A program made the translations under genes and the position numbers. Source: Candidatus Humimicrobiaceae bacterium (GTDB taxonomy: Bacteria > Actinomycetota > Humimicrobiia > Humimicrobiales > Humimicrobiaceae). Taken from it: 64,000 nucleotides of DNA. Shown here piece after piece: positions 1,397-61,905 of this stretch. The notes under the pieces are model-generated. The model searched no databases. It worked only from the letters and a program-made list of their open reading frames with translations, and had not been told where the DNA came from. The DNA lies in the NCBI GenBank assembly GCA_036514895.1, contig DATBWH010000051.1, forward strand, positions 122 through 64,121, given 5' to 3'. Positions within the stretch are counted from its first letter, which is position 1. Every line of letters begins with the position of its first letter.

Positions 1397-1765
1397 ATGA
1401 CTAGAGACTGGAAAGATTTAACGGAAATAACACGGGGAGAATCGGTTGAGATTGAACGGGTAAGAATGAAACGAAGTGGAATTTCGATTGAAGGCAATTT
1501 CGAACTTCCTCCACTTGCTCAGCTTACTCTGGAAGATCAGATCTTTGTGACCGCTTTTGTAAGATGCTTTGGGTCCATCAAAGAAATGGAGGAACTTTTC
1601 GGAATCAGTTACCCCACAGTAAAAAACAGACTCAGCAGGATCGCTGAGAGACTTGAATTTGTAGAGATAAATCCTCCTGCTTCGGGTAGTGAGGTTCTTA
1701 ACCAGCTTGAAAAGGGAGAGATATCCGTAGATGAAGCTGTAAAAAAATTGGGAGGTGAGAAATGA
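1397..1765 (+). CDS. DUF2089-family protein (HTH-containing, putative regulator)
   Basis: The segment FELPPLAQLTLEDQIFVTAFVRCFGSIKEMEELFGISYPTVKNRLSRIAERL matches the conserved DUF2089 core. The stop codon overlaps the next ORF start (ATGA). Confidence 0.7.
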   Translation: MTRDWKDLTEITRGESVEIERVRMKRSGISIEGNFELPPLAQLTLEDQIFVTAFVRCFGSIKEMEELFGISYPTVKNRLSRIAERLEFVEINPPASGSEVLNQLEKGEISVDEAVKKLGGEK

Positions 1766-5307: not shown

Positions 5308-6561
5308 TTAATGCCCCTCGGTAAGTGCCTTTATAAATATTGCCATATAGCAGAATGCAATAGGCGGAAAACTGACAATAGTAAATATCAGACCTCTTGA
5401 CATACGTTTATTTTCCCTTGATTCTATGATATTAAAGACCAGACTTAAAAGGAACAAAATACCTGATGCTATCATTAGTAGTCCGAAAAATCCCATAGCA
5501 ATATAGCTTTCCCAGCCCAAACCTATCTCGACACTCAGGAGAATCGTGAGCAGCCAGAATACAAGAGTCAGATAACCGCCTATCAAGACGGCCAGCCCTA
5601 AATTTTTGTTTCTTTTGGATAAGTCTATATTACCTTCCCTGGAAACCAGGTCCGGACCTTTTTTATTGAAATATAAAGTACTTGCTGAAAACAGCAGCAA
5701 AACCAGAAATATATAAAAAGGAAACCAGATTTCGTTGAAAAAATTAAGAGAACTTACAAAATATTGAGCAATAAAGATCAGTGCCATTATAATTACAGAC
5801 GCTACAAGAGTAACAAGACTTGCCCTTGTTATATCCTGGTACTGCTTTTCATCATACCATTCGGTTATCCTTTCGTTTAGTTTGATTACCAGCCAGTATA
5901 AAACTATCAGGACATACGGAATTACAGCTACGAGACTTATTACGACAACACCTGCATCTATAGCCCATGACGGTAATGGATATACCGTCAAGGATAAGAC
6001 AGAAAAAATTGTAATCAGAATCAAACCTGAAATTCCACTCAATATTCCTATATATTGTGCATTGATAAATATAGAATCGTCTTTCAAGACAACCTCTTCG
6101 CTCTTTTTCAAAATCGACTTTCTGGTTAATATAAGGAGGACAATCATGAGAATATAAAAAACAAAATGAAGCGCCTGACTGACAAAAAGAATGTTAAACT
6201 CACCCGGTAATCCAAATATATATTCTTTCGAGATGTCGCTCGCAAGCGCGAAGTCTCCAAGCAGCATCAGCAGAGAAACGGTACCGGTAAAAAATAGAAA
6301 GGCACGAAGGAAATTTTCTCTTTTAAAAAAGTTTAACTGCAGTATCAGAGTAAACATGGCAGACAAATGAAATAAAACGAAAATACAGTATACTAAGGCA
6401 ACCGGAATCGAAAACTTATTCATAAAACTTTCGACGTTTCCCATATTGACTATTTTATCCCTGAGCATTAAAAAGAAAGTGTTTGTGAATATAAGGCCTG
6501 CAATCGAAATCAAACATAAAATCAATGTGGTGGTATTGCTTATTTTTAATAGTCGTTTCAT
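5308..6561 (-). CDS. Polytopic integral membrane protein of unknown function
   Basis: A 417-aa ORF with about 10-12 hydrophobic segments. It lies immediately downstream of an XRE HTH regulator. Confidence 0.6.
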   Translation of the reverse strand: MKRLLKISNTTTLILCLISIAGLIFTNTFFLMLRDKIVNMGNVESFMNKFSIPVALVYCIFVLFHLSAMFTLILQLNFFKRENFLRAFLFFTGTVSLLMLLGDFALASDISKEYIFGLPGEFNILFVSQALHFVFYILMIVLLILTRKSILKKSEEVVLKDDSIFINAQYIGILSGISGLILITIFSVLSLTVYPLPSWAIDAGVVVISLVAVIPYVLIVLYWLVIKLNERITEWYDEKQYQDITRASLVTLVASVIIMALIFIAQYFVSSLNFFNEIWFPFYIFLVLLLFSASTLYFNKKGPDLVSREGNIDLSKRNKNLGLAVLIGGYLTLVFWLLTILLSVEIGLGWESYIAMGFFGLLMIASGILFLLSLVFNIIESRENKRMSRGLIFTIVSFPPIAFCYMAIFIKALTEGH

Positions 6562-6579
6562 TTTTTTTACACTCCTTTA

Positions 6580-6801
6580 TTACTCCTCTTCAAGGTAAAA
6601 TATTTCATCAACAGGTTTTTTAAAAAATCTGGCTATTTTCAATGCCAGTAGAACAGATGGATTGAATTTTCCCTTTTCAATTGAGTGAATGGTAAGGCGG
6701 GTAACACCAACAGCGTTTGCCAGTTCCTGCTGGGAAATCTCATGATGCTCAAACCGGCATCTCCTCAAATCGTTTTTAAGTTTTAGATTTTTTCTTTCCA
6801 C
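6580..6801 (-). CDS. XRE/Cro-C1 family helix-turn-helix transcriptional regulator
   Basis: A 73-aa protein with the canonical HTH QQELANAVGVTRLTIHSIEKG. Confidence 0.8.
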   Translation of the reverse strand: MERKNLKLKNDLRRCRFEHHEISQQELANAVGVTRLTIHSIEKGKFNPSVLLALKIARFFKKPVDEIFYLEEE

Positions 6802-7055
6802 TTTATTATATAAATAATAATTAACTAAATGAATAGTTTTATGAACTAAATATATATAATAATATACATGTTGTCAATAGTTTTTTATATTTTGTTTAAT
6901 TCATGATAGCTTTAAACCATCAGGCTGATTTATGACATTGAGAATCGACCATTTTTTACTTAAAATATTTTTAGAATATCTTAGAAAAAATTTAAACTAC
7001 TTGAATCCTTAATTTATGGATAAGTAATAAAATCAATTTTATTGAAAGGAAAATC

Positions 7056-7622
7056 ATGAAAAAATCACTTGGGCCGAAGACCATTCTTTACCCTACCCCT
7101 GTTCTTATAATAGGAACCTACGATGATCATGAAAAACCAAATCTGGCAGCTGTTGCATGGGGAGGGATCTGCTGTTCCGTTCCTCCCTGTGTTGCTATTT
7201 CAATGCGAAAGGCCACTTATACGCATGGCAACATAATGCAGAGGAAAGCTTTTACTATAAACATACTTTCCGAGAATATGGTAAAGAAAGCCGATTATTA
7301 TGGCATCGTGTCCGGAAGAAATAAAGATAAATTTACACAAACAAGTATTACCCCGCAAAAAAGCGATTTGGTAGATGCTCCTTATGGCATGGAATTCCCC
7401 CTGGTTCTCGAATGTAACTTATTAAAGGTAATTGAGATAGGACTTCATACACAGTTTATCGGAGAGATTATGGATATAAAAGCGGAAGAATCAATACTCG
7501 ATTCATCCGGTTTTCCGGATATCGATAAATTAAGACCATTCTTTTTTGATCCGGCCAAAAGAGAATACCTTGGAACTGGTAAAAAACTGGGAAAAGGATT
7601 TTCAATTGGTAAAGATATCTAA
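7056..7622 (+). CDS. Flavin reductase-like (FMN-binding split-barrel) domain protein
   Basis: ILYPTPVLIIGTYDDHEKPNLAAVAWGGICCSVPP is typical of the flavin reductase-like domain. Confidence 0.75.
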   Translation: MKKSLGPKTILYPTPVLIIGTYDDHEKPNLAAVAWGGICCSVPPCVAISMRKATYTHGNIMQRKAFTINILSENMVKKADYYGIVSGRNKDKFTQTSITPQKSDLVDAPYGMEFPLVLECNLLKVIEIGLHTQFIGEIMDIKAEESILDSSGFPDIDKLRPFFFDPAKREYLGTGKKLGKGFSIGKDI

Positions 7623-7738
7623 TCGAAGTCTATTCTAAGTATTTTGCAACTTTAATTCAAAAATACCGTTTATAATATCAAAGCAATTACTTACCAAAAG
7701 CACCTGCTAGAAAACCTGTTTGCTTTACATTAATTATG

Positions 7739-7753
7739 CATTCTGTCAGAATG
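7739..7753. promoter_or_regulatory. 7-1-7 inverted repeat CATTCTG-T-CAGAATG upstream of the B12-radical SAM gene
   Basis: A perfect 7-bp inverted repeat seen directly in the sequence, about 60 bp upstream of the ORF start. Confidence 0.3.
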
Positions 7754-7809
7754 ACTGAAACCTAAAGTGGGAACATACTGAAAATTAGAAAGAAAAGAGA
7801 AAACTTATA

Positions 7810-9282
7810 ATGAAAATTTTACTTGTTTATCCGGATTATGAAGAAACATTCTGGAGCTTTAAGAAAGTTTTAAAAATATTAGGTAAAAAAGCTGCTTACC
7901 CTCCTCTGGGTTTATTAACTGTTGGTGCCATGCTTCCCGATAGCTGGGAGAAAAAACTGGTTGATATGAATACGGATATTTTAAAAGATGAATATATCAA
8001 ATGGGCGGACTACATTTTTATAAGCGCGATGATCGTACAAAAAGAATCGACCAGGAGAGTAATAAATAAGATTAAGAAATTCAAAAAACCTATCGTTGGC
8101 GGCGGACCCCTCTTTACTACCGGTTGGGAAGAATTTACTGATGTGGATCATATCTTTTTAGGGGAAATAGAAAATACCTTTTCGGAATTTGTCGGGGATT
8201 TAGAAAAAGGTACTCTTAAGAAAATTTACTCCGGTAACGAATTCCCCGATATTAAAAAAATTGCTATTCCGGACTGGAATTCTATTAAGACTAAAAATTA
8301 TAATTCATTGTGTATTCAACTCTCCCGGGGCTGTCCTTTTAACTGCGAATTCTGTGACGTGGTGCAATTGAATGGAAGAATTCCCCGGTTTAAAAGCAAG
8401 GAACAATTGACCGATGAACTGGAAGCTCTTTATAAAAGAGGATGGCGTGCCGGTGTATTCTTTGTAGATGATAATTTTATTGGAAACAAAGCTATGCTTA
8501 AAAAAGAATATCTGCCTCTGATTATAGAATGGCAGAAAAATAAAAAATATCCTTTCAGTTTCAACACTCAGGTTTCGATTAACCTCGCTGATGATAATGA
8601 TCTCATGGAATTAATGGTACAGGCGGGCTTTACAGCCGTATTTATAGGAATCGAGACACCCGACGCAGGCGGTCTGGAAGAATGCGGCAAGCTTCAAAAT
8701 AAAAATAGAAACCTGATAGAATCGGTAAAATTAATTCAAAATGCCGGTATGGAAGTTCAGGGCGGATTTATAGTAGGTTTCGATAGTGACAAAATATCGA
8801 TTTTCCAGCGTCAGATCGAATTCATCCAGAAAAGCGGAATAGTAACCGCTATGGTCGGTCTGCTTACCGCGCTGCCAAAAACCAGATTATATCAGAGGTT
8901 AAAAGAGACAAAACGATTGGTTAAAAGAACATCAGGCAATAATACTAGAATCGCAGGTTTGAATTTCACTCCCAGAATGGATAAAAATGTTCTTATAAAC
9001 GGCCATAAGAAAGTATTATCTACTATTTATACTCCAAAGGCTTATTATGAGAGAGTCAAGACTTTTCTCAAAGAATACAGGCCGGCCAAAAGAAAGACAA
9101 AAAAAATTCGCATCTATCACATAAGGGCACTTATTGGCTCGATCTGGTGGCTTGGCATTAAACAAAAAGGAAGACCCTACTACTGGAAATTGATTTTATG
9201 GAGTCTTTTCAGGCGGCCTTCTCTTTTCCCTTATGCAATTGGTTTCTCCCTGACCGGAATCCATTTCAGGGCAATATCGTAG
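7810..9282 (+). CDS. B12-binding domain radical SAM protein (class B rSAM, DUF4070-type C-terminus)
   Basis: The N-terminal region is cobalamin-binding-like (MKILLVYPDY...PPLGLLTVGAML). The CxxxCxxC radical SAM motif is present as SRGCPFNCEFCDV. Confidence 0.85.
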   Translation: MKILLVYPDYEETFWSFKKVLKILGKKAAYPPLGLLTVGAMLPDSWEKKLVDMNTDILKDEYIKWADYIFISAMIVQKESTRRVINKIKKFKKPIVGGGPLFTTGWEEFTDVDHIFLGEIENTFSEFVGDLEKGTLKKIYSGNEFPDIKKIAIPDWNSIKTKNYNSLCIQLSRGCPFNCEFCDVVQLNGRIPRFKSKEQLTDELEALYKRGWRAGVFFVDDNFIGNKAMLKKEYLPLIIEWQKNKKYPFSFNTQVSINLADDNDLMELMVQAGFTAVFIGIETPDAGGLEECGKLQNKNRNLIESVKLIQNAGMEVQGGFIVGFDSDKISIFQRQIEFIQKSGIVTAMVGLLTALPKTRLYQRLKETKRLVKRTSGNNTRIAGLNFTPRMDKNVLINGHKKVLSTIYTPKAYYERVKTFLKEYRPAKRKTKKIRIYHIRALIGSIWWLGIKQKGRPYYWKLILWSLFRRPSLFPYAIGFSLTGIHFRAIS

Positions 9283-9860
9283 ATTGATTTAGTAATCCAT
9301 TATTTACCAGAATATTGTTCAGAAGATAGAAAACCGACTTCTAAAAAATAAATATTTATTTAAATTATAAAATTTATTAGAATATTAATACTGATATGTT
9401 ATAATTAGCATATAAAATAGTAATTTAATACTATAACAGCATAATTAGTAGACGATACCGCAGATATTATAGTACAAAATGTAATAATTTCGTAACCTTT
9501 AATTAACCAGAATTAGTATGTATAACAGGAACAAAAAAAAACTTAAAGGTTAAAATGAGAAAAAGATTTTTTAATGCCAGTATATTCAAAAAAATATTCA
9601 GAACACTTTTAATGTTTAGCAGACGTATAGGTTTCAATTCTACTATCAGGTGGTAAAAAGTCATAGCTGCATAAAGAATTCCTTCTATAAGACCCCCAGC
9701 ACCTGTATCATATAACAATAATGTCTTGTTTCCGATTATTGTATGATCTAAAATCTTTCACATATATACTTTATATTAATCCCATATCCTATTGTTCATA
9801 TATATTTTATTTTATGGTATTTTATTACGGTATTAATATAACGATTTTTTTCTTTAAAAA

Positions 9861-10223
9861 ATGGAAAGAGATAGATTCGAAGAAATAATAACAAATACTT
9901 TGCAGAGTATCCCCGATAAATTCAAGGATAAAATAGAAAATTTAAGTATTGTAATCGAGGATGGAGATATGGACCCAGCTCTAAAAAATAAAAAAGATAC
10001 ACGAAACAGGTACACGCTCGGTCTTTACCAGGGAGTCCCTGCTACATTAAAATCAGGGAGATCAAATATTTTACCCGATAAAATAACCATTTACAAAAAA
10101 ACACTGGAAGATGTAAGCCGCAATGATGAAGAGCTGGAAAAAAATATCAGAAGAGTAATCCTACATGAATTGGGCCACTACTTCGGTCTCGATGAAAATA
10201 AACTAAAGAAATTAGGTTATTAA
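9861..10223 (+). CDS. Zincin-like small metallopeptidase family protein (HExxH)
   Basis: A 120-aa protein ending in the HELGHYFGLDE zinc-binding motif, typical of the small 'Zincin_1' family. Confidence 0.65.
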   Translation: MERDRFEEIITNTLQSIPDKFKDKIENLSIVIEDGDMDPALKNKKDTRNRYTLGLYQGVPATLKSGRSNILPDKITIYKKTLEDVSRNDEELEKNIRRVILHELGHYFGLDENKLKKLGY

Positions 10224-10374: not shown

Positions 10375-10555
10375 AGAATTTACTAAATAACGAAAATAAT
10401 TTTAGTATTTTCAGAAAATTTTTGTTATAATTAAAAGACTAAATAATATAGACTACATTCGGATTGGCTAAAAGGATTAAAAGATATGTTATAAAGAAAC
10501 TTTTTTATTGGTGTAGAATATATATTGAAGATATAGAGAAATTAAAAAATAGGAG

Positions 10556-13021
10556 TTGAAAAAAATGATTGCCGAAGAAAAAAAACTTAATAAGGATATC
10601 GATAGAATAAATATACCGAAGGAGTTACCTCTCCTTTCATTAAAGAATAGTGTTGTATTTCCATTTCTGGCAACACCTCTGGTAGTAGGCAGAAAAAATT
10701 CTCTGGAAGCCGTTAAAAGTGCGTCCAGGGAACACAAGATCATAGTTGTAGTGGCACAAAAAGAAGAAAACAAAGAACTGGTGGGAAAAGAAGATTTATA
10801 TGAAGTCGGAACTGCCTGCGCCATAAAACAGGTTGCAAATATATCTGAGAACGAAATCAAATGTGTTGTCGAAGGAATTTCCAGGGTAAAAATAAAATAT
10901 TTTACTCAGACGGAACCTTATTTCAGAGCAGTTACCGAAGTTCTTAAGGAAATACCTTTGATCGAAGACAATGAAACAGAGAATCTCAATACGACTGTCA
11001 GAATGCAGGTTGAAAAATTTATTCAGCTGGGTATTCCACTGCCTACTGCTTTTGTAGTAGCAGCAACCAATATTTCCAAACCAGAAATCCAGACTGATTT
11101 ATTTGCTTCATATCTGCTTTCGAGCACAAAACAAAAGCAAAAGATACTGGAAGAAAGCGATCTTAAAGTAAGGTTAAGGAAATTAACAGAATATCTGGGT
11201 GAAGAATTAAAAAAATTCGAGGTTCAGTCTCAGATAAGAGATAAAGTCCAAAAAGAAGTCGGAAAAACCCAGAGAGAATATTATCTACGTCAGCAGCTTA
11301 AAGCAATAAAAAACGAACTTGGTGAATCTGATGAATCTATTGCATTGACCAAAGAGATCGATAAAAAATTGCAAAAGAAAAAGCTGCCAAAAGAAGCCAA
11401 AGATAAAGTATTAAAGGAAATAGAAAGGCTGGAAAATATCCCCAGCATGTCTCCTGAATATTCTTATGTGAGAACTTATGTAGAAACAATGCTGGATGTT
11501 CCCTGGTCCGAAAAAACCAAAGATATTCTGGATTTGAAAAAATCAAAGAAAATACTGGACGGGGATCATTACGATCTGGAAAAAGTAAAAACTCATATTC
11601 TTGATTACCTTGCAGTAAGAAAACTAAAGGGTAAAACTACGAAGGGCCCCATACTCTGCTTCGTTGGTCCTCCGGGTGTTGGTAAAACTTCTCTTGGGCA
11701 ATCCATAGCCAAGTCTCTTGGAAGAAAATTCATCAGAATGTCCATTGGAGGTATAAGAGATGAGGCCGAGATCAGGGGACACCGAAGAACATATGTAGGA
11801 GCACTTCCCGGAAGAATAATCCAGGGACTTACTCAGGTTGGAACAAATAACCCGGTCTTCATGCTGGATGAAGTCGATAAGGTGGGAGCTGATTATAGAG
11901 GCGACCCATCATCAGCATTGCTTGAAGTACTTGATCCCGAACAAAATAATTCATTCAGAGATCATTACCTTGAAGTACCATTCGATCTATCAAATGTGAT
12001 GTTCATAACAACAGCTAATATACTGGATACTATACATCCTGCATTGAGAGACAGAATGGAAATCATCGAGATACCCGGTTATAGTTCAGAGGAAAAGATA
12101 CACATAGCTGAAAAATTCCTGATTCCAAAGCAGTTAAAGGAGCAGGGCATTGAAAAATATAATGTGAAATTTGACAGTGAAGCTATATGCTTGATAATCG
12201 AGGAATATACCAGGGAAGCCGGTGTAAGAAACCTGGAGCGAGAAATAGCAAATATCTGTAAAAAAATCGCCAGAGAAATAGTTGAAGGAAAAGAGTATTC
12301 CAAAAATATAAGTGCCGAAAGGGTAAGAAATTATCTTGGTATTTCGAGAGTCCTGCCCAGTGAAATCGAAGACAAGAATAGAGTCGGAGTAGCAACTGGT
12401 CTGGCTTATACTCCGGTAGGCGGAGACATACTGCTTATTGAATCCACTCACTATAAGGGAAGCGGTGAATTGATACTTACCGGTAAACTTGGCGATGTGA
12501 TGCAGGAATCTGCAAAAGCAGCAATAAGCTATATACATTCAAGGGCAAAAGCTTTTGGAATAGACGATGATTTATTCAGTAAATCCGATATACATATTCA
12601 CGTCCCTGCAGGAGCAATACCAAAAGATGGTCCATCTGCTGGTGTAGCAATCACTTCGTCTCTGGTATCGACATTCACCGGAATACCAGTATTGAGAGAC
12701 GTGGGTATGACCGGAGAAATAACCCTGAGAGGAAGAGTTCTTCCAATCGGTGGGCTTAAAGAAAAATTACTGGCTGCAAAAAGAGCAGGATTGAGAAAAG
12801 TAGTATTACCTGAAAAAAATAAGAAGGACCTTGATGAGATACCCAAGAGTATATTAGATGGGTTAAAACTGGAATTTGTGGAAAATATCGATGATGTAAT
12901 CAAGCATACCCTGGAACGGTATCCTTCAAAACCGGATATCAAAGATAGTAAAGGTACGAAGATTTCAGGTGATGAATTAAAAATAGGAGAGCCCCAGGGA
13001 TTAGGGCCCACAATACAATAA
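10556..13021 (+). CDS. lon: ATP-dependent Lon protease
   Basis: Lon N-terminal domain, AAA+ Walker A (GPPGVGKTS), and a protease domain with the catalytic Ser in PKDGPSAG. Length 821 aa. Confidence 0.95.
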   Translation: MKKMIAEEKKLNKDIDRINIPKELPLLSLKNSVVFPFLATPLVVGRKNSLEAVKSASREHKIIVVVAQKEENKELVGKEDLYEVGTACAIKQVANISENEIKCVVEGISRVKIKYFTQTEPYFRAVTEVLKEIPLIEDNETENLNTTVRMQVEKFIQLGIPLPTAFVVAATNISKPEIQTDLFASYLLSSTKQKQKILEESDLKVRLRKLTEYLGEELKKFEVQSQIRDKVQKEVGKTQREYYLRQQLKAIKNELGESDESIALTKEIDKKLQKKKLPKEAKDKVLKEIERLENIPSMSPEYSYVRTYVETMLDVPWSEKTKDILDLKKSKKILDGDHYDLEKVKTHILDYLAVRKLKGKTTKGPILCFVGPPGVGKTSLGQSIAKSLGRKFIRMSIGGIRDEAEIRGHRRTYVGALPGRIIQGLTQVGTNNPVFMLDEVDKVGADYRGDPSSALLEVLDPEQNNSFRDHYLEVPFDLSNVMFITTANILDTIHPALRDRMEIIEIPGYSSEEKIHIAEKFLIPKQLKEQGIEKYNVKFDSEAICLIIEEYTREAGVRNLEREIANICKKIAREIVEGKEYSKNISAERVRNYLGISRVLPSEIEDKNRVGVATGLAYTPVGGDILLIESTHYKGSGELILTGKLGDVMQESAKAAISYIHSRAKAFGIDDDLFSKSDIHIHVPAGAIPKDGPSAGVAITSSLVSTFTGIPVLRDVGMTGEITLRGRVLPIGGLKEKLLAAKRAGLRKVVLPEKNKKDLDEIPKSILDGLKLEFVENIDDVIKHTLERYPSKPDIKDSKGTKISGDELKIGEPQGLGPTIQ

Positions 13022-26906: not shown

Positions 26907-27335
26907 TCAATACTCAAATTTATAGGTCTTGCAATAACCGAATCGATCATCCCATGGGTATATGACATTAGTTTTAGAAGTCGATCTGATGCTGCTGCTT
27001 TTTGTAATAAACTTGTCTATTAATACAAAATCGAGTGTCTTTTCTACAGTAACAATTACATCGTCATAGTCATAACTACATTCAACAAGAATACAATTGT
27101 TCTTTCGAGCCAATTCTTCGGCAATCATATTGCAATAAGAATCCTCAAAAAATAACAGGTTTTGTGCAACAGCAAGCGAAACGGCATCGGAAGCATTTTT
27201 TGTTTCCTCCCGTGCTATGAAAATCTGGCATAAGTCGAAAATAAGAAGAAACAAAATTGAAAATATGATTACCGCAGCCAGCGCGAAAAAAGATATATTA
27301 CCCCTATTTTGTGTATTTAAATCTTTTAGTAGCAT
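26907..27335 (-). CDS. TadE/TadG-like pseudopilin (Tad-locus minor pilin-like protein)
   Basis: The N-terminal hydrophobic segment and the TKNASDAVSLAVAQNL motif resemble the Tad/TadG N-terminal domain. It overlaps the upstream tadE. Confidence 0.5.
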   Translation of the reverse strand: MLLKDLNTQNRGNISFFALAAVIIFSILFLLIFDLCQIFIAREETKNASDAVSLAVAQNLLFFEDSYCNMIAEELARKNNCILVECSYDYDDVIVTVEKTLDFVLIDKFITKSSSIRSTSKTNVIYPWDDRFGYCKTYKFEY

Positions 27336-27784
27336 TCCATCCTCATATTACTCTTAGCTTTTATAATACTATCCTTTCCCGAAAATATTCCCTGCAAACC
27401 AGTAATATCTGCATTTTTGTATATGACAGTCACCTCAATCATATCCCCGACTTTTCTGGAAGCCCTGCTTTCCGGAGAGACTTTTATTTCAAGCATATTC
27501 TGATCCAGACCAGAACAGACTTCTTTTATGCATGCATATGCTTCCTGATCGGAATTGGTAGTAGCAATCACTCTTGCTCCTTCACGAGCTGCCTGCTCCA
27601 ATATATTTTTCTGATAGATCAGTAATCCAAAATGGGAAACAGCTAAAATTATTAAAATCAATAGAGGAATAATCAAAATAAACTCCAGTGAAGCCTGACC
27701 ATCCGGATCATGTCCTGATATCTTTGATTTATTCTTTCTTTTATTTATATCCATAATGATTTTTAACATAAAACTGTTTCCCAT
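27326..27784 (-). CDS. tadE: TadE-like pilus assembly protein
   Basis: The N-terminal G-QASLEFILIIPLLILIIL motif is characteristic of TadE/TadF. Confidence 0.7.
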   Translation of the reverse strand: MGNSFMLKIIMDINKRKNKSKISGHDPDGQASLEFILIIPLLILIILAVSHFGLLIYQKNILEQAAREGARVIATTNSDQEAYACIKEVCSGLDQNMLEIKVSPESRASRKVGDMIEVTVIYKNADITGLQGIFSGKDSIIKAKSNMRMECY

Positions 27785-27824
27785 TCTTTTTATTTGCAGA
27801 GAATAATTTACTCTTCATTGGGTT

Positions 27825-28016
27825 TTAAACCATCGAAGCTATTTTCCCAAATACCTTTGAAATGACATCGATTATCAGTGGTTTGCCTACTGCTATGAGG
27901 ATTGCGCTTATTATTCCTGCAATTACCGTAACCAGTGCATACTCGAGAGTAGATTGTCCTTTCTGGCACCAGAATTTTATTCTAATGCCACTCTTTTTTA
28001 TTTTTATTTTACTCAC
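27825..28016 (-). CDS. flp: Flp-family type IVb pilin precursor
   Basis: A 63-aa protein with a basic leader, then G/QSTLEYALVTVIAGIISAILIAV (Flp G-xxxxEY processing motif plus a hydrophobic helix). The RBS GGAGG lies upstream. Confidence 0.7.
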   Translation of the reverse strand: MSKIKIKKSGIRIKFWCQKGQSTLEYALVTVIAGIISAILIAVGKPLIIDVISKVFGKIASMV

Positions 28017-28261
28017 CCCCCTCCATAAATATAAAAGTTAAGTTTTGAATCTTACACCTCCTTTTATTAATAAGTAATACCTTTGTGCATTTGTGCATAT
28101 ATCCATAACGATAATTTACCATATTTATTCAATTGTGTAAATACATAATTGATAATTTATTAAAATTTTCATAAAGATTTATTATGAAACCCTATATTTT
28201 TTACTTTTGTATTAATTAATGTATTAATAATTATATATTATTATTATTTAAGAGAATTCTC

Positions 28262-28472
28262 TTGACATTAATAATATAATGTATTAACATTCCTATGTAA
28301 TCTGCAATTTTTAGTTTTATTGAAAATTTAAATTTTATTAGTAATAGAGGCTAAGACTTACATTTCGTTATTGGGCACTTTGAAATGTAACGAGCCAGTG
28401 GTGCAACCGGCTATTGCTTTTTTATTGGAAAAAAGTTTGCCATCTAGCCTCTATGTTAGATGGCTTTTTTTT
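28262..28472 (+). promoter_or_regulatory. Candidate cis-regulatory leader with terminator/antiterminator alternative pairing upstream of the CAP-domain gene
   Basis: A possible -35 TTGACA at 28262. A terminator hairpin GCCATCTA-GCCTCTATGT-TAGATGGC plus T8 lies at 28439-28472. The upstream segment TAGAGGCTA (28345-28353) is exactly complementary to TAGCCTCTA in the 5' arm and loop of the terminator. An additional 9-bp hairpin is TTACATTTC/GAAATGTAA. Confidence 0.45.
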
Positions 28473-28483
28473 GGGATAAAACA

Positions 28484-29221
28484 ATGAAAAACGGGATTAA
28501 AAAAATATTAATAATATCACTGATTACAGCATTATTAGCATCAGTTATCTTTTTCTTTGCTTTTACCTATCAAACTGCAAACATAAGCACCAGCTTTACA
28601 GAAACCAGTAACTACAAAGCAGAAGATTTAGGGAAAACCGGCATAGTCCAGGAAAATGTATCCGTAAAAGATAATATTGCAGATACAGCAACAATACTGG
28701 CAAAGATATCAGACAACCTTGACAAGGAGATTGACAATATACGCTCGGATTATAATGCTGAAGTTCTTGGAAGTGCCGCAGCAAGCCAGACTGCCGAGGC
28801 TGCTGCTCCGGTAGCCTCTATTGCCAACTTAAGTGATTATGAAGCAGCAGTTCTTAACCTTATCAATAATATAAGAGTATCAAATGGACTTGGTGCACTG
28901 CAGTCAAATCAAATACTGACAGATATAGCCAGATATAGATGCAGTGACATGATAAATAATTCTTACTTTTCACATTATATGGCTGACGGCAGGAACATCT
29001 TCAATATACTTGGCGAAAATGGTGTCTCTTATGTAAATGCCGGAGAAAACCTGGGACAATCCACACCTGCTTCTAATGGGACTCCCGAAGCATTCGCAAA
29101 TGCATGGATGCAAAGTTCTACCCATAAGGCAAATATCTTGAGGTCCGTATATTCCAAGATTGGAATCGGAGTAGTCGATGGTGGAGATAGAAGAGTAGTA
29201 GCAACTGTATTTATGAATTAA
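28484..29221 (+). CDS. Secreted CAP/SCP/YkwD-domain protein
   Basis: A signal-peptide-like N-terminus (MKNGIKKILIISLITALLAS) and a C-terminal CAP domain (ARYRCSDMINNSYFSHY...HKANIL...YSKIGIGV). The ORF track starts at an ATG at 28460 inside the terminator hairpin. The ATG at 28484 is the more plausible start. Confidence 0.8.
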   Translation: MKNGIKKILIISLITALLASVIFFFAFTYQTANISTSFTETSNYKAEDLGKTGIVQENVSVKDNIADTATILAKISDNLDKEIDNIRSDYNAEVLGSAAASQTAEAAAPVASIANLSDYEAAVLNLINNIRVSNGLGALQSNQILTDIARYRCSDMINNSYFSHYMADGRNIFNILGENGVSYVNAGENLGQSTPASNGTPEAFANAWMQSSTHKANILRSVYSKIGIGVVDGGDRRVVATVFMN

Positions 29222-29256
29222 CTGTTTAAATCATATAAGTTTACGGACGCCTAGAC

Positions 29257-29295
29257 AAACACCCCGGATATTATTTATCCGGGGTGTTTAATTTT
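29257..29295 (+). terminator. Rho-independent terminator (AAACACCCCGGA...TCCGGGGTGTTT + T-run)
   Basis: A 12-bp perfect stem followed by AATTTTTAT, between the convergent CAP and tadC genes. Confidence 0.75.
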
Positions 29296-29309
29296 TATAG
29301 TCAAAAAAT

Positions 29310-30197
29310 CTAAAACTGCAAAAAATTTCCTCCCAGCGAAAATAAAAGCGGTCCGCCTACCAGGATCATAAAAGATGGCAAGATCAGAAAAACCAGCGGG
29401 AACAATGTCAATACTGTTATTCTTCTGATTTTTCTTTCAAGATTCTGATAAGCCTGGAACTTTATATGCCTGGATTTCTGTTTCAATATTTCGTTTATAG
29501 AAGAACCATACTTCTCTGCCTGGATAAGGAGAAAAATAAAACTTTTAAAATCTTCCGAAATACTCCTGTCCATAAGGTTTTTATACGCTTGAAGTTTACC
29601 GATGCCAATATCGATGTCTTTTATAAAATTAGATAGTTCAATACAAATTCTTCCCTTATACTTTTCGGCTATGATTTTCATTGCATTATAAATATTCTGC
29701 CCCGACAATGTCGCTACTGCCAGCAGATCTACTACATACGGTAAATCCCTCTCTATTTCATTTTTTCTTACTTTCTTGAAATTGCCAAGCAGCAGATTCG
29801 GAACAAAATAACCTGTCACCCCTGTGATAATACCCAATAGACCGGGACCTATCAGACTACTGCCGGATAGACTTCCCGCAGTGAAAAATAAAACAAATAA
29901 GATCACTTTATAGCCCATAAAAGTATCCAGAGTAAGGGATATTTTATTTTCATGTTCCAATAATCTTAAGAGTTCCTTATTTTCTTTTTTGACCTCGAAC
30001 CAGTGCCTGTTAATCAGAGATCTTCCAATTCTAAAAGCAATCGAATTCATTTTGTTTATAATTGCTGTAAAAAACTTTTTCTTCCCGGAATAATCTTTAT
30101 TTTTCGCGGTCCTGCGGTAACTTCTGGATTTAATAATATGAAATATAACCGAACATAGAAATATATAATACGATAATATGATTAAATATATAAACAT
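29310..30197 (-). CDS. tadC: Type II secretion system F-domain protein TadC
   Basis: A 295-aa polytopic protein with a T2SS-F-like domain. It is adjacent to tadB. Confidence 0.75.
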   Translation of the reverse strand: MFIYLIILSYYIFLCSVIFHIIKSRSYRRTAKNKDYSGKKKFFTAIINKMNSIAFRIGRSLINRHWFEVKKENKELLRLLEHENKISLTLDTFMGYKVILFVLFFTAGSLSGSSLIGPGLLGIITGVTGYFVPNLLLGNFKKVRKNEIERDLPYVVDLLAVATLSGQNIYNAMKIIAEKYKGRICIELSNFIKDIDIGIGKLQAYKNLMDRSISEDFKSFIFLLIQAEKYGSSINEILKQKSRHIKFQAYQNLERKIRRITVLTLFPLVFLILPSFMILVGGPLLFSLGGNFLQF

Positions 30198-30209
30198 ATC
30201 TAATTCCTG

Positions 30210-31091
30210 TTATTTTGGTGTACCTATTATTTTTTTCATTATAACTATTCCAGCGATTTCCATAACCCCTCCTACAAAAAGCAGAATTATCCCTATGCCG
30301 GTTGAAAAAAAATCAAGTATGGCTTTATTCATGAAGACACATAATATGATCAGCACGATAACAGGAAATAAAGAAATAATATTCCCGGAATATCTGCTCT
30401 GTAGACTCATTGTATCGGTCTGTGATTTTAATTTCAGGTTATGACGTACAGTATCGGCTATGCTGGCCAACATAGATATCAGATCTCCCCCTATTTTATT
30501 ATTTATCTTCAATGAACAAACAAGAAGGTCGACTTCCCTGCTCCCGCACTTTTGTGAAAACCTATTCAAGACTTCGTCCAGCGTAGAATTGAGTTCCAGA
30601 TCATTTACCACTTCCACAAGATAAGTATTAAGCGGGTCCTTAAACCACCCGATAGAATCTTTGAATATACTTCTTACCGTTTTTCCTGCTTTTAGCATCA
30701 TTGTCATATTGCTTATGAATTCAAGAAGCTGACCATGGAGCAAGTCTTTTCTTTTTTCTTCAAGTCCCTTTAATAAGTCCAGAATATAGATTTCCAGACA
30801 TACTCCAATAAATAAACTAAAGATAAAATTTCCGCACAATAAGTAAACAGTCAGTGTAAGGATAATAAAAATGATTATCGTAAGTATCTTTCTTCTGGTC
30901 TTATATATTTTCGTAAGAAATTTGATTACTCCGGATCTCCCGTAACTCCTGTTCTCCCTTAAGGTTCTGGCCTTCGGAACAAATATTGGAGCAATTCTTT
31001 TCAATCCTTGAAACATACATAGAATTGCCAGGATAAAGGTAAAAGAAATAATTATTTCATCCCAAATTTTCATACTCAAATTTATAATCAA
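30210..31091 (-). CDS. tadB: Type II secretion system F-domain protein TadB
   Basis: A 293-aa polytopic protein with a T2SS-F-like domain. It overlaps the cpaF stop. Confidence 0.75.
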   Translation of the reverse strand: MIINLSMKIWDEIIISFTFILAILCMFQGLKRIAPIFVPKARTLRENRSYGRSGVIKFLTKIYKTRRKILTIIIFIILTLTVYLLCGNFIFSLFIGVCLEIYILDLLKGLEEKRKDLLHGQLLEFISNMTMMLKAGKTVRSIFKDSIGWFKDPLNTYLVEVVNDLELNSTLDEVLNRFSQKCGSREVDLLVCSLKINNKIGGDLISMLASIADTVRHNLKLKSQTDTMSLQSRYSGNIISLFPVIVLIILCVFMNKAILDFFSTGIGIILLFVGGVMEIAGIVIMKKIIGTPK

Positions 31092-40362: not shown

Positions 40363-40441
40363 TGGTCGGGATGGGGGGATTTGAACCCCCGGCCTCAGCG
40401 TCCCGAACGCTGCGCGCTAAACCAAGCTGCGCTACATCCCG
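40363..40441 (-). tRNA. tRNA-Pro (anticodon CGG)
   Basis: The minus-strand sequence CGGGATG TA GCGC...CAGCG TTCGGGA CGCTG...GGGGG TTCAAAT CCCCC CATCCCG A CCA folds as a cloverleaf. The anticodon loop is UUCGGGA, with G37 and an encoded CCA. Confidence 0.85.
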
Positions 40442-52523: not shown

Positions 52524-52600
<77 letters not shown>

Positions 52601-58151: not shown

Positions 58152-59606
58152 CTATAATTTTTTTTCCTTATCGAAACTGGCGTTTATAGCCTTAAGAAAA
58201 TCATTATTTGATTTCGTATTTTTTATATAGTCTATCAACTGCTCGAGTGCCACTTCGGGTTCTTTTTCATATATCAATCTTCGAAGTTTCCAGACCGTCC
58301 TGGCTTCTTCTTTATCCATTAATAATTCTTCTTTTCTGGTTCCTGACCTGGTTATATCGATTGCAGGAAAAATTCTTTTATCGGCCAGTTTCCGGTCCAG
58401 ATTGATTTCCATATTACCGGTACCTTTGAATTCCTCGAATATAACATCGTCCATTCTGCTTCCTGTTTCGATCAATGCAGTCGCAAGTATGGTGAGGCTT
58501 CCTCCGTTTTCGATATTTCTGGCTGCTCCGAAGAACCTTTTTGGCGGGAACAATGCAGAGGAATCCACTCCGCCGGACAGAACCCTGCCGCTTGCCGGGA
58601 TCGACAAATTATATGCCCTTGCGAGCCGGGTTATACTGTCAAGGAGTATCAATACATCTTTGCCATGTTCGACCAACCTCTTTGCCCGCTGAAGAACAAG
58701 TTCGGCAACCTGAATATGGTTGTCTGACGGTTGATCGAATGTTGAACTAATTACTTCTCCTTTTACCGATCTTTCCATATCGGTTACTTCTTCAGGCCTC
58801 TCATCGATCAGCAGGACTATAATATTTACTTCGGGATTATTGGTAGAAATGCTGTTGGCAAGATCCTTTAGTATGGTTGTCTTACCCGCCTTGGGAGGAG
58901 ACACGATAAGACCCCTCTGGCCTTTCCCTATAGGTGCAATCAAATCTATTATTCTCGGAGTTATGTTATCCGATTCACTGGTCTCCATCCTTAATCTGTC
59001 CATGGGATATATTGGAGTCAACTTTTCAAATGGTATTCTGCTTCTTATGAATTCCGGATCTTCTCCGTTTACTTTTTCTATTCTGAGTAATGCATTGTAT
59101 TTTTCACTTTCTTTTGGCGGCCGGACCTGACCATATACTTCATCTCCCTGTCTCAAACGGAATCTTCTAATCTGAGACTGGGAAACATATATATCATGCG
59201 ATCCGGCAAGATATCCGGTCGTCCTCAGGAAACCATAACCATCCGCCAGTATATCGAGTATACCTTTCATTCTTTCCTTATATAAGTCAAATTCCGGTTT
59301 TTTCTCGATGTCTCTCTTTCTTTTTTCACCCTTCTCTTCTTCAATCATCTCTTCTTCTATTATTTCTTCTTCGACGGGTTCTTCCTTTTTCTCTTCCAAA
59401 ACCGCAACCTCTTCCCCTGTCATGGGTTCATTCTTAAACGAAGGTTCCATACCATTATTGGGTATTTCCTCCAGTATTTTATCCACAAGTTCGTCTCTCT
59501 TTAATTTAGAAATTCCCTGAATATTTAATTGCCTGGCTATGACTCTTAAGTCAGATAAAACCTTCTTATCAAGAAATTCCCTGTTTAATTCTTCTAATTC
59601 AGCCAT
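58152..59606 (-). CDS. rho: Transcription termination factor Rho (with N-terminal insertion)
   Basis: An acidic N-terminal insertion, then an OB/RNA-binding region, Walker A ([17 protein letters not shown]) and the C-terminal ATPase domain. Confidence 0.95.
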
Positions 59607-60094: not shown

Positions 60095-61462
60095 CTATAC
60101 TTTTGGAAGTTTTTCCAGGGATTCTTTTATCTTTTCTGTAGGATATTCGTAATCTTCAAGATTCCCATCCAGATAACTATCATATGCTCCAAGATCGAAA
60201 TGCCCGTGCCCGCTGAAATTAAAGGCTATGACTTTCTCTTCTCCGGTTTCCTTGCATTTCATGGCTTCATCTATAGCTGCCTTTATTGCATGTGCTGTTT
60301 CAGGAGCCGGGATGATTCCTTCTGTCCTGGCAAAGGTAACAGCTGCTTCAAACACAGGATTCTGGTGAAGTGCAATTGCCTCAATGACCTTCTCGTGGTA
60401 AAGCAAACTTACCTGGGGTGCCATGCCGTGGTATCTAAGTCCTCCCGCATGTATTCCGGCGGGAATAAAATCATGACCCAGAGTATACATTTTTGCTATA
60501 GGACCTGTTTTTGCAGTATCACCATAATCATAAGCAAATGGACCCTTGGTCAATGATGGGCAGGCAATGGGCTCAACGGCTATGATCCTGATTTTTTTGC
60601 CGCTCAATTTATCGGGTATAAATGGAAAAGCAAATCCGCCGAAGTTACTGCCGCCGCCAACACAACCGATTAATATATCGGGATATTCGCCCAGTTTTTC
60701 AAACTGCTTTTTAGTTTCAAGTCCTACAATCGATTGATGAAGGATTACATGATTCAGCACACTGCCGAGTGAATATTTTGCATCTCCGCCGCTTTTAACC
60801 GCATCTTCTACAGCTTCGCTTATAGCTATACCCAGACTTCCGGGAGAATTGGGATCCTGAGCCAGTATATTCTTACCGGCATCCGTCAAATTTGAAGGAG
60901 AAGGATGAACAGTTGCGCCCCACAGATTCATCATGCTTTTCCTGTATGGTTTTTGATCATAGCTTACCCTGACCATATAAACCGTACAACCTAATCCAAA
61001 AAGATTGCATGCGAATGCAAGTGCGCTTCCCCATTGTCCCGCACCAGTTTCGGTAGCAAGTCTTTTTACTCCTTCTTTTTTATTATAATAGGCCTGAGCC
61101 AAGGCGGTATTAGGTTTATGGCTCCCTGCAGGGCTGACGCTCTCATTTTTAAAATATATTCTGGCCGGTGTATCAAGATATTTTTCTAATCTTTCAGCTC
61201 TTACAAGAGGCGTCGGCCTCCACATTCTATAAATATTTACAAGCTCTTCAGGAATATCGATAAATCGATCCATGCTTACTTCCTGCATGATAAGTGACAT
61301 TGGAAACAAGATCGAAAGATCATCCGGTGTCAGAGGTTTACAGGTCTGCGGATGCAAAGGCGGGTCCAGAGGTTTTGGCAGATCAGGATTTATATTGTAC
61401 CATTGTCTCGGCATTTCCTTTTCTGTGAGTAATGTTTTTTTATCTTTTTCATTTTGATCCAT
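60095..61462 (-). CDS. trpB: Tryptophan synthase beta-chain paralog, TrpB2 type
   Basis: A 455-aa long-form TrpB with the PLP lysine region ([15 protein letters not shown]) and GGGSNFGG motifs. No trpA is adjacent. Confidence 0.9.
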
Positions 61463-61905
61463 TTATGTTCTCCTCTCTTTATTTTTATAATTTCCTGACA
61501 ACAATTTCAAAATTTCTTTATTGGTATTTTTCTTAACTTCGCCATAATAAAATTTTTATTTTCATCACCTTTCCTTTCCATAAACAAAAAACCTCTCCAT
61601 CACTACATAATATTGTAGAGACGAGAGGTTTAATTCCCGCGGTGCCACCCTACTTTGCCCTAAAATCAATATAATTATTGATTCCGGAACACACTTAAAA
61701 TATTTCAGATACTTTAAATACCCTATCCTCTGGTAACGGAGGAAGCCGGCCTGACTTACTCTCTAATAAAAGATTTGAGCCAGACACCTCACAGACCCAT
61801 TCAGACACCAGCTTAGCAACCGCATTCTCAGCTTCAGCGGCTCTCTGTATGCTGCATTCAGTGCTTACTATCTCTGGTCACAGGTTTTGTTGGAAATATT
61901 TAATT
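61463..61905 (-). promoter_or_regulatory. T-box riboswitch leader upstream of trpB2
   Basis: The minus-strand RNA contains AAAGUAGGGUGGCACCGCGGG (T-box consensus AAnnnGGGUGGnACCGCG; plus-strand 61636-61655). A terminator follows directly, with an AACCUCUC/GAGAGGUU stem plus U6 (plus-strand 61585-61630). Confidence 0.65.

Follow-up and report, generated by a model that had tools for sequence, protein, structure and literature searches.

A monocistronic mRNA for a CAP/YkwD-like protein, encoded within the 64,000-nucleotide stretch of Candidatus Humimicrobiaceae DNA analysed here (the window), carries in its 5' leader a predicted class II c-di-GMP riboswitch aptamer that probably acts as a transcriptional OFF switch. 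The direction is most likely from c-di-GMP to termination, because ligand binding takes for helices P1 and P2 the same nucleotides (28344-28353) that could otherwise pair with a downstream terminator. In C. difficile every class II switch that has been characterised is an ON switch (PMC6200980, PMC11477304), and a literature search that did not cover the first description of the class (Lee et al. 2010), which may mention OFF-type platforms, yielded no description of a class II OFF switch; nor did the search find a link between YkwD/CAP proteins and c-di-GMP riboswitches. The RNA class is an established one, met here in a host lineage new to it, the Humimicrobiia, and knowledge of the class itself is left unchanged by the window element.

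The aptamer and its leader

A covariance-model scan matched RF01786 (c-di-GMP-II) to the plus strand at 28337-28421 with 73.5 bits (E 6e-16), where the gathering score is 53.5, and the alignment is complete, covering model positions 1-84 of 84. Within clan CL00127 this is the top-scoring model; RF03169 outscores it solely on unrelated soil sequences of high GC, in which the P3 loop is longer and contains GAAG. By this match the element is a class II c-di-GMP riboswitch aptamer, with ligand binding predicted. The initial annotation had described a riboswitch-like element of about 90 nt that it could not place in a class, and had listed c-di-GMP, c-di-AMP/ydaO and ykkC as candidates: the element, of about 85 nt, now has its class, the ligand named first stands, and the other two fall away, since the ydaO/c-di-AMP and ykkC/guanidine-I models gave no match in 27000-30500 with an E of 1 or less and nothing at gathering threshold across the whole window. 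The conserved-looking 9-bp hairpin that it had pointed out is real, and is aptamer helix P3.

The highly conserved consensus positions of RF01786 (GA, GGC, UGGGCAC, GAGCC, AGU and GUGCAACCGGC) are all found in the window aptamer, and those in junctions and loops (the same list less GGC) do not vary among 13 aligned leaders. Across these leaders 91.9% of cells are paired in the true register, compared with 26-45% in slid registers, the individual helices reaching 75.5% (P1), 97.4% (P2) and 100% (P3); one P3 pair switches from C-G to U-A, covariation being thin because the 13 leaders are little diverged. The putative pseudoknot between GGGCAC of the P3 loop and a 3' GUGC, a feature of the family's published structure that is absent from the Rfam structure line, is 100% paired in the 13 leaders, yet has a single variable pair (U-G or U-A).

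On the sense strand the promoter, aptamer, terminator, Shine-Dalgarno sequence (SD) and ATG follow one another in the order of a 5' UTR with an expression platform (see the table). We infer that the sigma-70-like site at 28262-28290 is the promoter of the riboswitch-CAP transcript, and its blocks TCTTGAC and GTATTAAYAT are kept in every related locus. Between promoter and aptamer lies the motif GTTTTATTGAAAATTTA, a degenerate version of which is discernible in distant CAP leaders; its reading as a second promoter (TTGAAA-16/17-TAATAG) is unconvincing, because the -10 lacks its final T and the transcription start would lie within the aptamer. Past the aptamer, the U/A hairpin is predicted to form once transcribed, with a probability of 0.85 at length 28446, where that of P1 is down to 0.004. 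It is 93% paired in the 13 leaders, with a single compensatory change (U-A to A-U), and distant leaders carry analogous hairpins.

The intrinsic terminator is present where it had been placed before, U8 included, its stem being counted here as 10 pairs: GCCATCTAGC/GTTAGATGGC at 28439-28464, with one G-U pair, a 6-nt loop and an energy of -14.2 kcal/mol, is followed directly 3' by U8 at 28465-28472. The hairpin is 97.7% paired in the 13 leaders, with six pairs varying on one side and one on both. Terminator-like sites in 27700-29500 number 5, against 0.7 expected from shuffles. Rfam matches at 29230-29391 (His_leader, PsrR1, SprX, Flavo-1 and BSnc120; E 0.045-0.99, below gathering) merely reflect the terminator hairpin between the CAP gene and tadC.

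Table. Features of the riboswitch-CAP unit, in window coordinates.
Feature	Position	Strand	Basis or remark
Putative sigma-70-like promoter, TTGACA-17-TAACAT	28262-28290	+	Best promoter-like site in the region, 10/12 positions
5'-leader motif	28314-28330	+	Conserved in close loci
c-di-GMP-II aptamer (predicted)	28337-28421	+	RF01786 covariance-model match
Aptamer helix P1	28337-47/28411-21	+	RF01786 alignment
Antiterminator 5' strand (predicted)	28344-28353	+	Belongs to upper P1, A28348 and P2 once the aptamer has bound its ligand
Aptamer helix P2	28349-51/28394-96	+	RF01786 alignment
Aptamer helix P3	28358-65/28383-90	+	8 bp by Rfam alignment, 10 bp by MFE folding
Putative pseudoknot, P3 loop to 3' segment	28375-79/28400-04	+	Pairing in 13 leaders
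U/A hairpin, CUUUUUU-AUUGG-AAAAAAG	28417-28435	+	Rivals lower half of P1; fold prediction and conservation
Intrinsic terminator, 10-bp hairpin and U8	28439-28472	+	Terminator scan, folding, conservation
Antiterminator 3' strand (predicted)	28445-28454	+	Last 4 nt of terminator 5' arm, and loop
SD, GGGA	28473-28476	+	Precedes ATG 28484
CAP/SCP (YkwD-like) CDS, 245 aa, N-terminal signal or membrane anchor	28484-29221	+	Pfam PF00188, start-codon comparison
Strong hairpin terminator, 14 bp	29257-29289	.	Separates convergent CAP and tadC; terminator scan

The CAP gene and its distribution

The product of the plus-strand gene matches PF00188 over residues 124-239 (E 1.6e-15, 58.4 bits against a cut-off of 21.1) and begins with MKNGIKKILIISLITALLASVIFFFAF, a basic and then hydrophobic stretch, in agreement with its first description as a signal-peptide-bearing CAP/SCP protein. 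Among solved structures the nearest is that of an SCP-domain protein, PDB 4ifa (E 3e-7). The protein is YkwD-like and cannot be filed as a member of TIGR02909 (YkwD), for which it scores 99.2 bits, under the cut-off of 171. There are 1254 CAP homologues, the closest of 245-246 aa. A start at 28460, which would have put the terminator hairpin inside the coding region, is rejected, since 10 of 15 homologous loci lack any upstream start in frame, whereas the ATG at 28484 has a conserved SD and an MK(N/R/Y/I)K N-terminus that aligns across homologous loci.

The minus-strand neighbours are of tad type, with Pfam matches for two T2SSF proteins, T2SSE, a ParA-like ATPase, a CpaB-like SAF/RcpC protein, TadE, Tad and a Flp-like pilin. 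T2SSE (197 bits), both T2SSF, TadE, Tad and SAF lie above the Pfam cut-offs; Flp_Fap, RcpC and AAA_31/CbiA (the ParA-like, TadZ/CpaE-like protein) lie below them. Judged by this domain content, against an expected set of a TadA-type ATPase, two TadB/C-type platform proteins, a TadZ/CpaE-like ATPase, CpaB, Flp pilin and TadE/TadG-like pseudopilins, the flanking genes form a Tad/Flp pilus locus, and the matches bear out the earlier placement of the CAP gene between minus-strand tadC and flp. The term "inserted" used there does not hold in so far as it suggests a recent event: the arrangement of leftward Flp, rightward riboswitch-CAP and leftward TadC is found in full in 9 related genomes, with contigs that end early being consistent with it, and the arrangement is old, the gene order persisting in relatives whose CAP identity is as low as 59%; the module also occurs outside tad loci. 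We note, as a counterpoint to an OFF switch, that a gene of a pilus locus might be expected to be induced by c-di-GMP rather than repressed. A regular-expression search of window ORFs of at least 120 aa returned no GGDEF motifs, and for enzymes of c-di-GMP the sole indication is one weak GGDEF match, in the relative L019.

Leader conservation in homologous loci, which the initial annotation had proposed as a check, was found ahead of the CAP homologue at 17 further loci, all from uncultured Actinomycetota of the class Humimicrobiia and each with the aptamer-plus-terminator module; by sequence comparison it extends to the whole leader. The tad synteny is shared by 12 of the 17. Where close loci include upstream DNA the aptamer is present in all 12 (57.8-79.6 bits), and it lies 59-81 nt upstream of the CAP gene, with greater spacing in L019 and L128. 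The other five CAP loci are outside any tad locus and have the aptamer upstream in other contexts (L014, L015/16, L017 and L019, with CAP identities of 43-65%, and L128, whose identity is unmeasured). In L019 the OFF-type CAP gene is convergent with an ON-type c-di-GMP-II element upstream of a SpaA-like adhesin.

The proposed switch and its alternatives

In the proposed mechanism, when c-di-GMP is absent the U/A hairpin (28417-28435) would take the 3' strand of lower P1, freeing 28344-28353 to pair with 28445-28454 as the latter leaves the polymerase; this helix would prevent formation of the terminator hairpin, so that transcription would enter the CAP gene. With c-di-GMP, the ligand would lock P1 and P2, and because 28344-28353 would then be occupied the terminator at 28439-28472 would fold and the transcript would stop at about 28472. 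Low c-di-GMP would thus allow CAP protein to be made, and high c-di-GMP would repress it.

The pairing at the centre of this proposal is exact. The 9-nt complementarity reported in the initial annotation, TAGAGGCTA (28345-28353) with TAGCCTCTA (28445-28453), is perfect, is extended to 10 bp by A28344-U28454, and is kept in 20 of 20 leaders. Perfect complements of at least 10 nt between the aptamer and the downstream region arose in 7 of 2000 dinucleotide shuffles, and the duplex energy of -17.8 kcal/mol was equalled or exceeded in 38 of 2000 (shuffles -11.2 +/- 2.5); over the 20 leaders the energy ranges from -12.6 to -20.9 kcal/mol. The helix is 93.8% paired across 13 leaders. Double compensatory changes in it are absent among the aligned leaders, since its 5' strand is held invariant as part of the aptamer, and its support comes, in place of strict covariation, from loop conservation across differing terminator stems and from compensation in helix length. 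The sequence GYCUCUA at the terminator arm-loop junction is invariant in all 20 leaders while the stems around it vary (CCAUCUAGC, CCAUUUAGC, CCGCUUAGU, CCAUAAAAG), and in L015 and L019 the pairs at 28352-53 are lost and the helix is extended on the opposite side (UAUUG with UAAUA/CAAUA).

Folding of nascent transcripts is consistent with this order of events. In minimum free energy folds of transcripts cut just past the antiterminator 3' strand the helix is present in every leader (17/17 and 3/3, or 20/20), and for window transcripts that end at 28454-28461 its probability is 0.93-0.95. At 28464 the two full states are about 1 kcal/mol apart (-34.4 and -33.5), and in 11 of 17 full leaders the equilibrium is either even or leans slightly to the terminator state, under an energy model that leaves out the pseudoknot and tertiary contacts, which stabilise the aptamer even unliganded. 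Read-through in the apo state would therefore depend on kinetic trapping. As a negative control we examined 109 metagenomic c-di-GMP-II cores, most of which have the AGAGGC 5' strand; only 3 have, farther downstream, a hairpin that contains GCCTCT and has a T-run, all with the CAP-leader platform, and another 32 have the usual ON layout, in which the terminator overlaps the aptamer 3' end.

The position of the terminator bears on whether the same aptamer might be an ON switch, with c-di-GMP giving read-through and CAP co-induced with the Tad pili, as would be suggested by the experimentally tested class II switches, all of them ON (PMC6200980, PMC11477304, PMC4744006), by the dominance of ON-type layouts in the metagenomic sample (32 against 3) and by the place of the CAP gene in an adhesion-pilus locus. 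ON layouts use the aptamer's ACCGGC as the terminator 5' arm (L019 9946-10029, soil loci), whereas the window terminator is a self-contained hairpin at least 17 nt past the aptamer and has no nucleotides in common with the aptamer 3' strand. Its sole conserved competitor is the 5' P1/P2 strand, which the ligand sequesters; because we found no element that binding would free and that could stop the terminator, we regard an ON switch as unlikely.

The remaining alternatives concern the ligand and the target. Specificity variants have parallels in the GEMM-I variants that bind cGAMP and in the c-di-GMP-II-GAG/GCG variants, and a different ligand here, such as another cyclic dinucleotide, could be argued from the variant families in clan CL00127, the RF03169 matches in soil metagenome loci, and an A in place of U at one k-turn position of the window (UAAGAC against consensus gaUGAa). 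That position is U in most relatives, however, every highly conserved consensus position is retained, and the window together with 17 of 17 CAP leaders scores best, and well over threshold, with canonical RF01786, which leaves a change of ligand very improbable. We give equally little credence to the tad operon as main target, with plus-strand transcription across 28472-29290 acting as antisense or convergent interference on minus-strand tad/flp: the CAP unit runs towards tadC (convergent) and away from flp (divergent), an arrangement conserved in close loci, and antisense-acting riboswitches are known (PMC9943018), but the 14-bp terminator lies between CAP and tadC, CAP is a conserved protein-coding gene with its many homologues, and the identical riboswitch-plus-terminator module stands ahead of CAP genes and another secreted protein in tad-free loci.

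Comparison with known systems

More tentatively, and with a good deal less confidence than in the switch itself, we suggest that the Humimicrobiia may hold a lineage-specific, logic-inverted class II switch, OFF because the loop of a detached terminator pairs with the aptamer 5' strand. Its regulon might be small and consist of secreted proteins, CAP/YkwD paralogues together with one rich in Ala/Glu, that would be made only at low c-di-GMP, possibly as anti-adhesion or dispersal factors, reciprocally to the Tad pili and ON-type adhesin genes of the same genomes. Through the predicted riboswitch a conserved gene in the Tad locus of uncultured subsurface Actinomycetota, a lineage with no known genetics, acquires a concrete candidate signal in c-di-GMP, and the association hints at a part for CAP/YkwD-type bacterial proteins in the switch between motile and sessile lifestyles. 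If the OFF logic is true, class II c-di-GMP aptamers reach beyond ON control, and the leader offers a compact, well-conserved terminator/antiterminator platform for tests.

The class II switches of C. difficile (Cdi2_1 to Cdi2_4, for example upstream of pilA1/CD3513, CD2831, CD3246 and cmrRST; RF01786) have the aptamer class in common with the window, including P1-P3, the putative GGGCAC/GUGC pseudoknot, the conserved GUGCAACCGGC and the 5' UTR position. They are alike also in apparent control by intrinsic termination and in a surface or secreted-protein target adjoining pilus genes. All of the C. difficile switches are ON (PMC6200980), whereas the window element has a detached terminator and an additional predicted helix, in which the aptamer 5' strand pairs with the terminator loop and which inverts the logic to a predicted OFF; the hosts differ too, being Clostridia in the one case and uncultured low-GC Actinomycetota (Humimicrobiia) in the other, where the target is of CAP/YkwD type. 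The c-di-GMP-II-GAG family (RF03169, clan CL00127) has the overall fold and the GUGCAACCGGC core in common with the window, which scores best to RF01786.

In predicted physiology the closest likeness is to the class I (GEMM-I) OFF riboswitch of PPEP-1/Zmp1 (CD2830) in C. difficile. PPEP-1 is a secreted metalloprotease that is repressed by c-di-GMP through premature termination, and its gene adjoins adhesion genes favoured by c-di-GMP (PMC11477304). The aptamer there is GEMM-I and that of the window class II, and CAP is not known to be a protease; if the proposal is true, the secreted-protein OFF regulon of the Humimicrobiia would be a parallel to the PPEP-1/adhesin circuit of C. difficile.

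The c-di-GMP-II aptamer and the gene it precedes

Between the divergent flp gene and the plus-strand ORF lies an AT-rich intergenic region of 470 nt, the plus strand of which includes a hairpin-rich segment. The initial annotation had described here an intrinsic terminator and an upstream segment complementary to its 5' arm and loop. This observation is accurate, since both features are present and a complement of such length is uncommon by chance: the nonamer TAGAGGCTA (28345-28353) is the exact complement of TAGCCTCTA (28445-28453), the helix reaching 10 bp when A28344-U28454 is counted, and this length arose in 7 of 2000 dinucleotide shuffles, with the duplex energy matched in 38 of 2000.

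When 27000-30500 was searched with the covariance models of all 4227 Rfam families, a single match was significant, that to the cyclic-di-GMP-II riboswitch aptamer RF01786 (73.5 bits, where the gathering score is 53.5; E 6e-16; positions 1-84 of the 84-position model), which was found again at the gathering threshold when the whole window was scanned. Of the ligand classes put forward initially, c-di-GMP agrees with this match, as class II, whereas c-di-AMP/ydaO and ykkC elements gave no match in the same region at E up to 1; the 9-bp hairpin noticed earlier is helix P3 of the aptamer. The strongly conserved consensus nucleotides are all present (GA, GGC, UGGGCAC, GAGCC, AGU and GUGCAACCGGC). 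The variant family RF03169, of the same clan, scores best only on unrelated high-GC soil sequences, and the aptamer is therefore placed in the canonical class. The element is almost certainly a canonical c-di-GMP-II riboswitch, of a known class, with ligand binding predicted from sequence. Between promoter and aptamer, a motif at 28314-28330 (+), GTTTTATTGAAAATTTA, is conserved in close loci and persists in distant CAP leaders in the degenerate form GTTyTwTTGAnAATTwA; its sequence is similar to a -35 box and, in addition, recalls the U/A hairpin at 28417-28435.

The ORF listed from 28460 starts within the 3' arm of the terminator, and the earlier reading had allowed that the hairpin might thus be coding. 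Such a start is ruled out on three grounds: 10 of 15 homologous loci lack any in-frame start ahead of the conserved MK... one, a Shine-Dalgarno sequence (GGGA/GGAG) lies 7-10 nt before the latter, and close homologues are mostly 245-246 aa in length; the terminator thus lies within the leader. The protein opens with a basic then hydrophobic stretch, either a signal peptide or a membrane anchor, continues through a linker of low complexity and ends in a CAP/SCP domain (PF00188, E 1.6e-15). It is YkwD-like, yet falls under the cut-off of the YkwD model, and among solved structures the closest is PDB 4ifa, an extracellular protein with an SCP domain. Elsewhere, the window carries a T-box leader upstream of a TrpB-like PLP enzyme ORF, which is followed by a Rho-like ORF, and two tRNA genes.

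Coordinates of features in the window and in compared loci
Feature	Location	Strand	Remarks
flp gene	27825-28016	-	
Promoter-like site TTGACA-17-TAACAT	28262-28290	+	top-ranking such site in the region
c-di-GMP-II aptamer	28337-28421	+	RF01786
Terminator GCCAUCUAGC-CUCUAU-GUUAGAUGGC	28439-28464, U8 28465-28472	+	-14.2 kcal/mol
CAP CDS, 245 aa	28484-29221	+	start-site comparison of homologous loci
14-bp hairpin terminator	29257-29289		between CAP gene and convergent tadC
tRNA gene	40366-40441	-	RF00005, 65.8 bits
tRNA gene	52527-52600	-	RF00005, 63.3 bits
Rho-like ORF	58152-59606	-	
TrpB-like PLP enzyme ORF	60095-61462	-	
T-box leader	61614-61890	-	RF00230, 106 bits
L019, second c-di-GMP-II aptamer	9946-10029	-	56 bits
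L037, OFF-type platform and secreted protein	6446-7489	+	
L044, aptamer	1569-1655	-	

Predicted wiring of the switch

Three mutually exclusive pairings link aptamer and terminator: the 3' strand of lower P1 (28417-21) is shared with the U/A hairpin, the 5' strand of upper P1/P2 (28344-53) with an alternative helix formed with 28445-54, and the 3' strand of this alternative helix is the end of the terminator 5' arm plus the loop. When window transcripts of increasing length were folded, the aptamer was predicted up to 28436; by 28446 the U/A hairpin had formed (probability 0.85) and P1 had fallen to 0.004; and at 28454-28461 the alternative helix prevailed (0.93-0.95). Only once the terminator 3' arm is complete, at 28464, are the terminator and antiterminator states nearly isoenergetic (-34.4 versus -33.5 kcal/mol). 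The antiterminator geometry proposed initially is borne out by these predictions, as the nascent-transcript MFE structure contains the alternative helix in all 17 leaders and in three further metagenomic ones. With the leader folded in full, the MFE state is the terminator for 11 of the 17 and the antiterminator for the other 6.

The GYCUCUA segment of the terminator is invariant (20/20 leaders), and the stems vary (CCAUCUAGC, CCAUUUAGC, CCGCUUAGU, CCAUAAAAG). In leaders L015 and L019 pairs are lost at one helix end and UAUUG:CAAUA/UAAUA pairs gained at the other; strict covariation is not demonstrable for the alternative helix because the aptamer constrains its 5' strand. In the absence of c-di-GMP the antiterminator would form and permit read-through into the CAP gene, whereas bound c-di-GMP would stabilize P1 and P2, allow the terminator to form and turn the gene off. 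Since the ligand-stabilized P1/P2 use the 5' strand of the antiterminator, the switch is probably an OFF switch, with termination site and ligand binding predicted.

Conservation of the module and its tad surroundings

Querying with the CAP protein yielded 13 loci from species-representative genomes, all uncultured Actinomycetota MAGs, one named Candidatus Hydromicrobium (class Humimicrobiia), and RF01786 lies directly upstream of the CAP gene in 12 of 12 loci with upstream DNA (71-79 bits). Across the 13 aligned leaders, the combined aptamer and terminator model reaches 91.9% pairing, and slid registers only 26-45%; pairing is complete (100%) in P3 and in the putative loop-to-3' pseudoknot. 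The comparison of leaders suggested earlier thus shows conservation upstream of CAP homologues, with thin covariation: divergence is low, and both partners change in just two pairs. The window has a G+C content of 36.8%, though its closest genomes are labeled Actinomycetota, and one close CAP homologue carries the NCBI label 'Candidatus Atribacteria bacterium', which points to earlier misbinning or misclassification of the Humimicrobiia lineage.

The minus-strand neighbors are tad-type genes (Pfam): a CpaB-like SAF/RcpC protein, a ParA-like ATPase, a T2SSE ATPase and two T2SSF platform proteins on one flank, and on the other TadE, a Tad/TadG-like protein and a Flp-like pilin with a G/QSTLEY motif and a score under the Pfam cut-off. 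The order Rex, methyltransferase, SSB, TadG-like, TadE, Flp (leftward), riboswitch-CAP (rightward), TadC, TadB, TadA, TadZ, CpaB (leftward) persists in loci with CAP identity as low as 59%, and the arrangement is therefore ancient in the clade and not the recent insertion that the first description implied. Distant homologues (43-65% identity) have quite different neighborhoods, following an SBF-like transporter (L014, L017) or adjoining DNA ligase (L015, L019), and all four keep the riboswitch (74-80 bits); riboswitch and CAP gene thus form a conserved unit, and the tad placement is clade-specific.

Minus-strand features on the flp side span 28024-28144. A putative flp promoter (TTTACA-17-TAAATT, preceded by a TG; 28141-28113) lies within the conserved block TTGTGTAAATAC ... 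ATAATTTAYCAT, and the flp 5' UTR (~90 nt) contains a pair of conserved motifs resembling GGAGGTG (CACCTCC when read on the plus strand; 28056-62 and ~28024-30), only the second of which precedes the annotated GTG start.

ON and OFF layouts compared with known switches

When metagenomes were scanned for the conserved core of the aptamer, 120 stretches came back, 109 of them with sufficient flank. Of these, 32 show the usual ON layout: the aptamer's own ACCGGC is paired to a GGCCGGUUUU strand, and the terminator therefore overlaps the aptamer. Only three place GCCTCT within a detached hairpin with a T-run after it, all with the same low-GC platform as the window: L128 lies upstream of a CAP homologue, and L037 and L044 (AGCCATTTAGCCTCTAGTTAAATGGCTTTTT) precede an unrelated Ala/Glu-rich secreted protein of 289-339 aa, with a signal anchor, a coiled Ala/Glu-rich region, a conserved C-terminal domain and a KKNKNK tail, for which no NCBIfam match was found. 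Both layouts occur on the L019 contig, where the terminator of a second aptamer (CCGAC...GUCGG plus U8) overlaps the aptamer 3' end in the ON layout, upstream of a SpaA/SdrD_B-type adhesin gene (7307-9868, -) with an adjoining sortase, convergent with the OFF-type CAP gene (10465-11166, +). On soil contigs among L020-L139 (e.g. L027, L028, L040, L057, L097), a long conserved block, ...atcccctaNNNaggggaggaaggggtNgtggtcggtatgcg...cctacctgac..., comes after numerous high-GC c-di-GMP-II or c-di-GMP-II-GAG (RF03169) aptamers; it matches no Rfam family at the gathering threshold and could be a new type of expression platform or a coupled structured RNA.

Class II c-di-GMP riboswitches are well known, chiefly in Clostridia, and the class I switches of C. 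difficile are mostly OFF. A literature search, with the original 2010 class II description outside it, found no OFF class II switch described, and no paper in which a c-di-GMP riboswitch is tied to CAP/YkwD proteins or to Tad loci. The novelty is modest and lies in the host lineage, Humimicrobiia within Actinomycetota, in the CAP/YkwD-like gene embedded in a tad locus, and in an expression platform with predicted OFF logic. In C. difficile a class I OFF switch lies upstream of the secreted protease PPEP-1 (PMC11477304), and all four class II elements, which govern pili and adhesins, are ON switches, one acting via a ribozyme (PMC6200980, PMC11477304, PMC4744006); the platform in the window, by contrast, predicts OFF.
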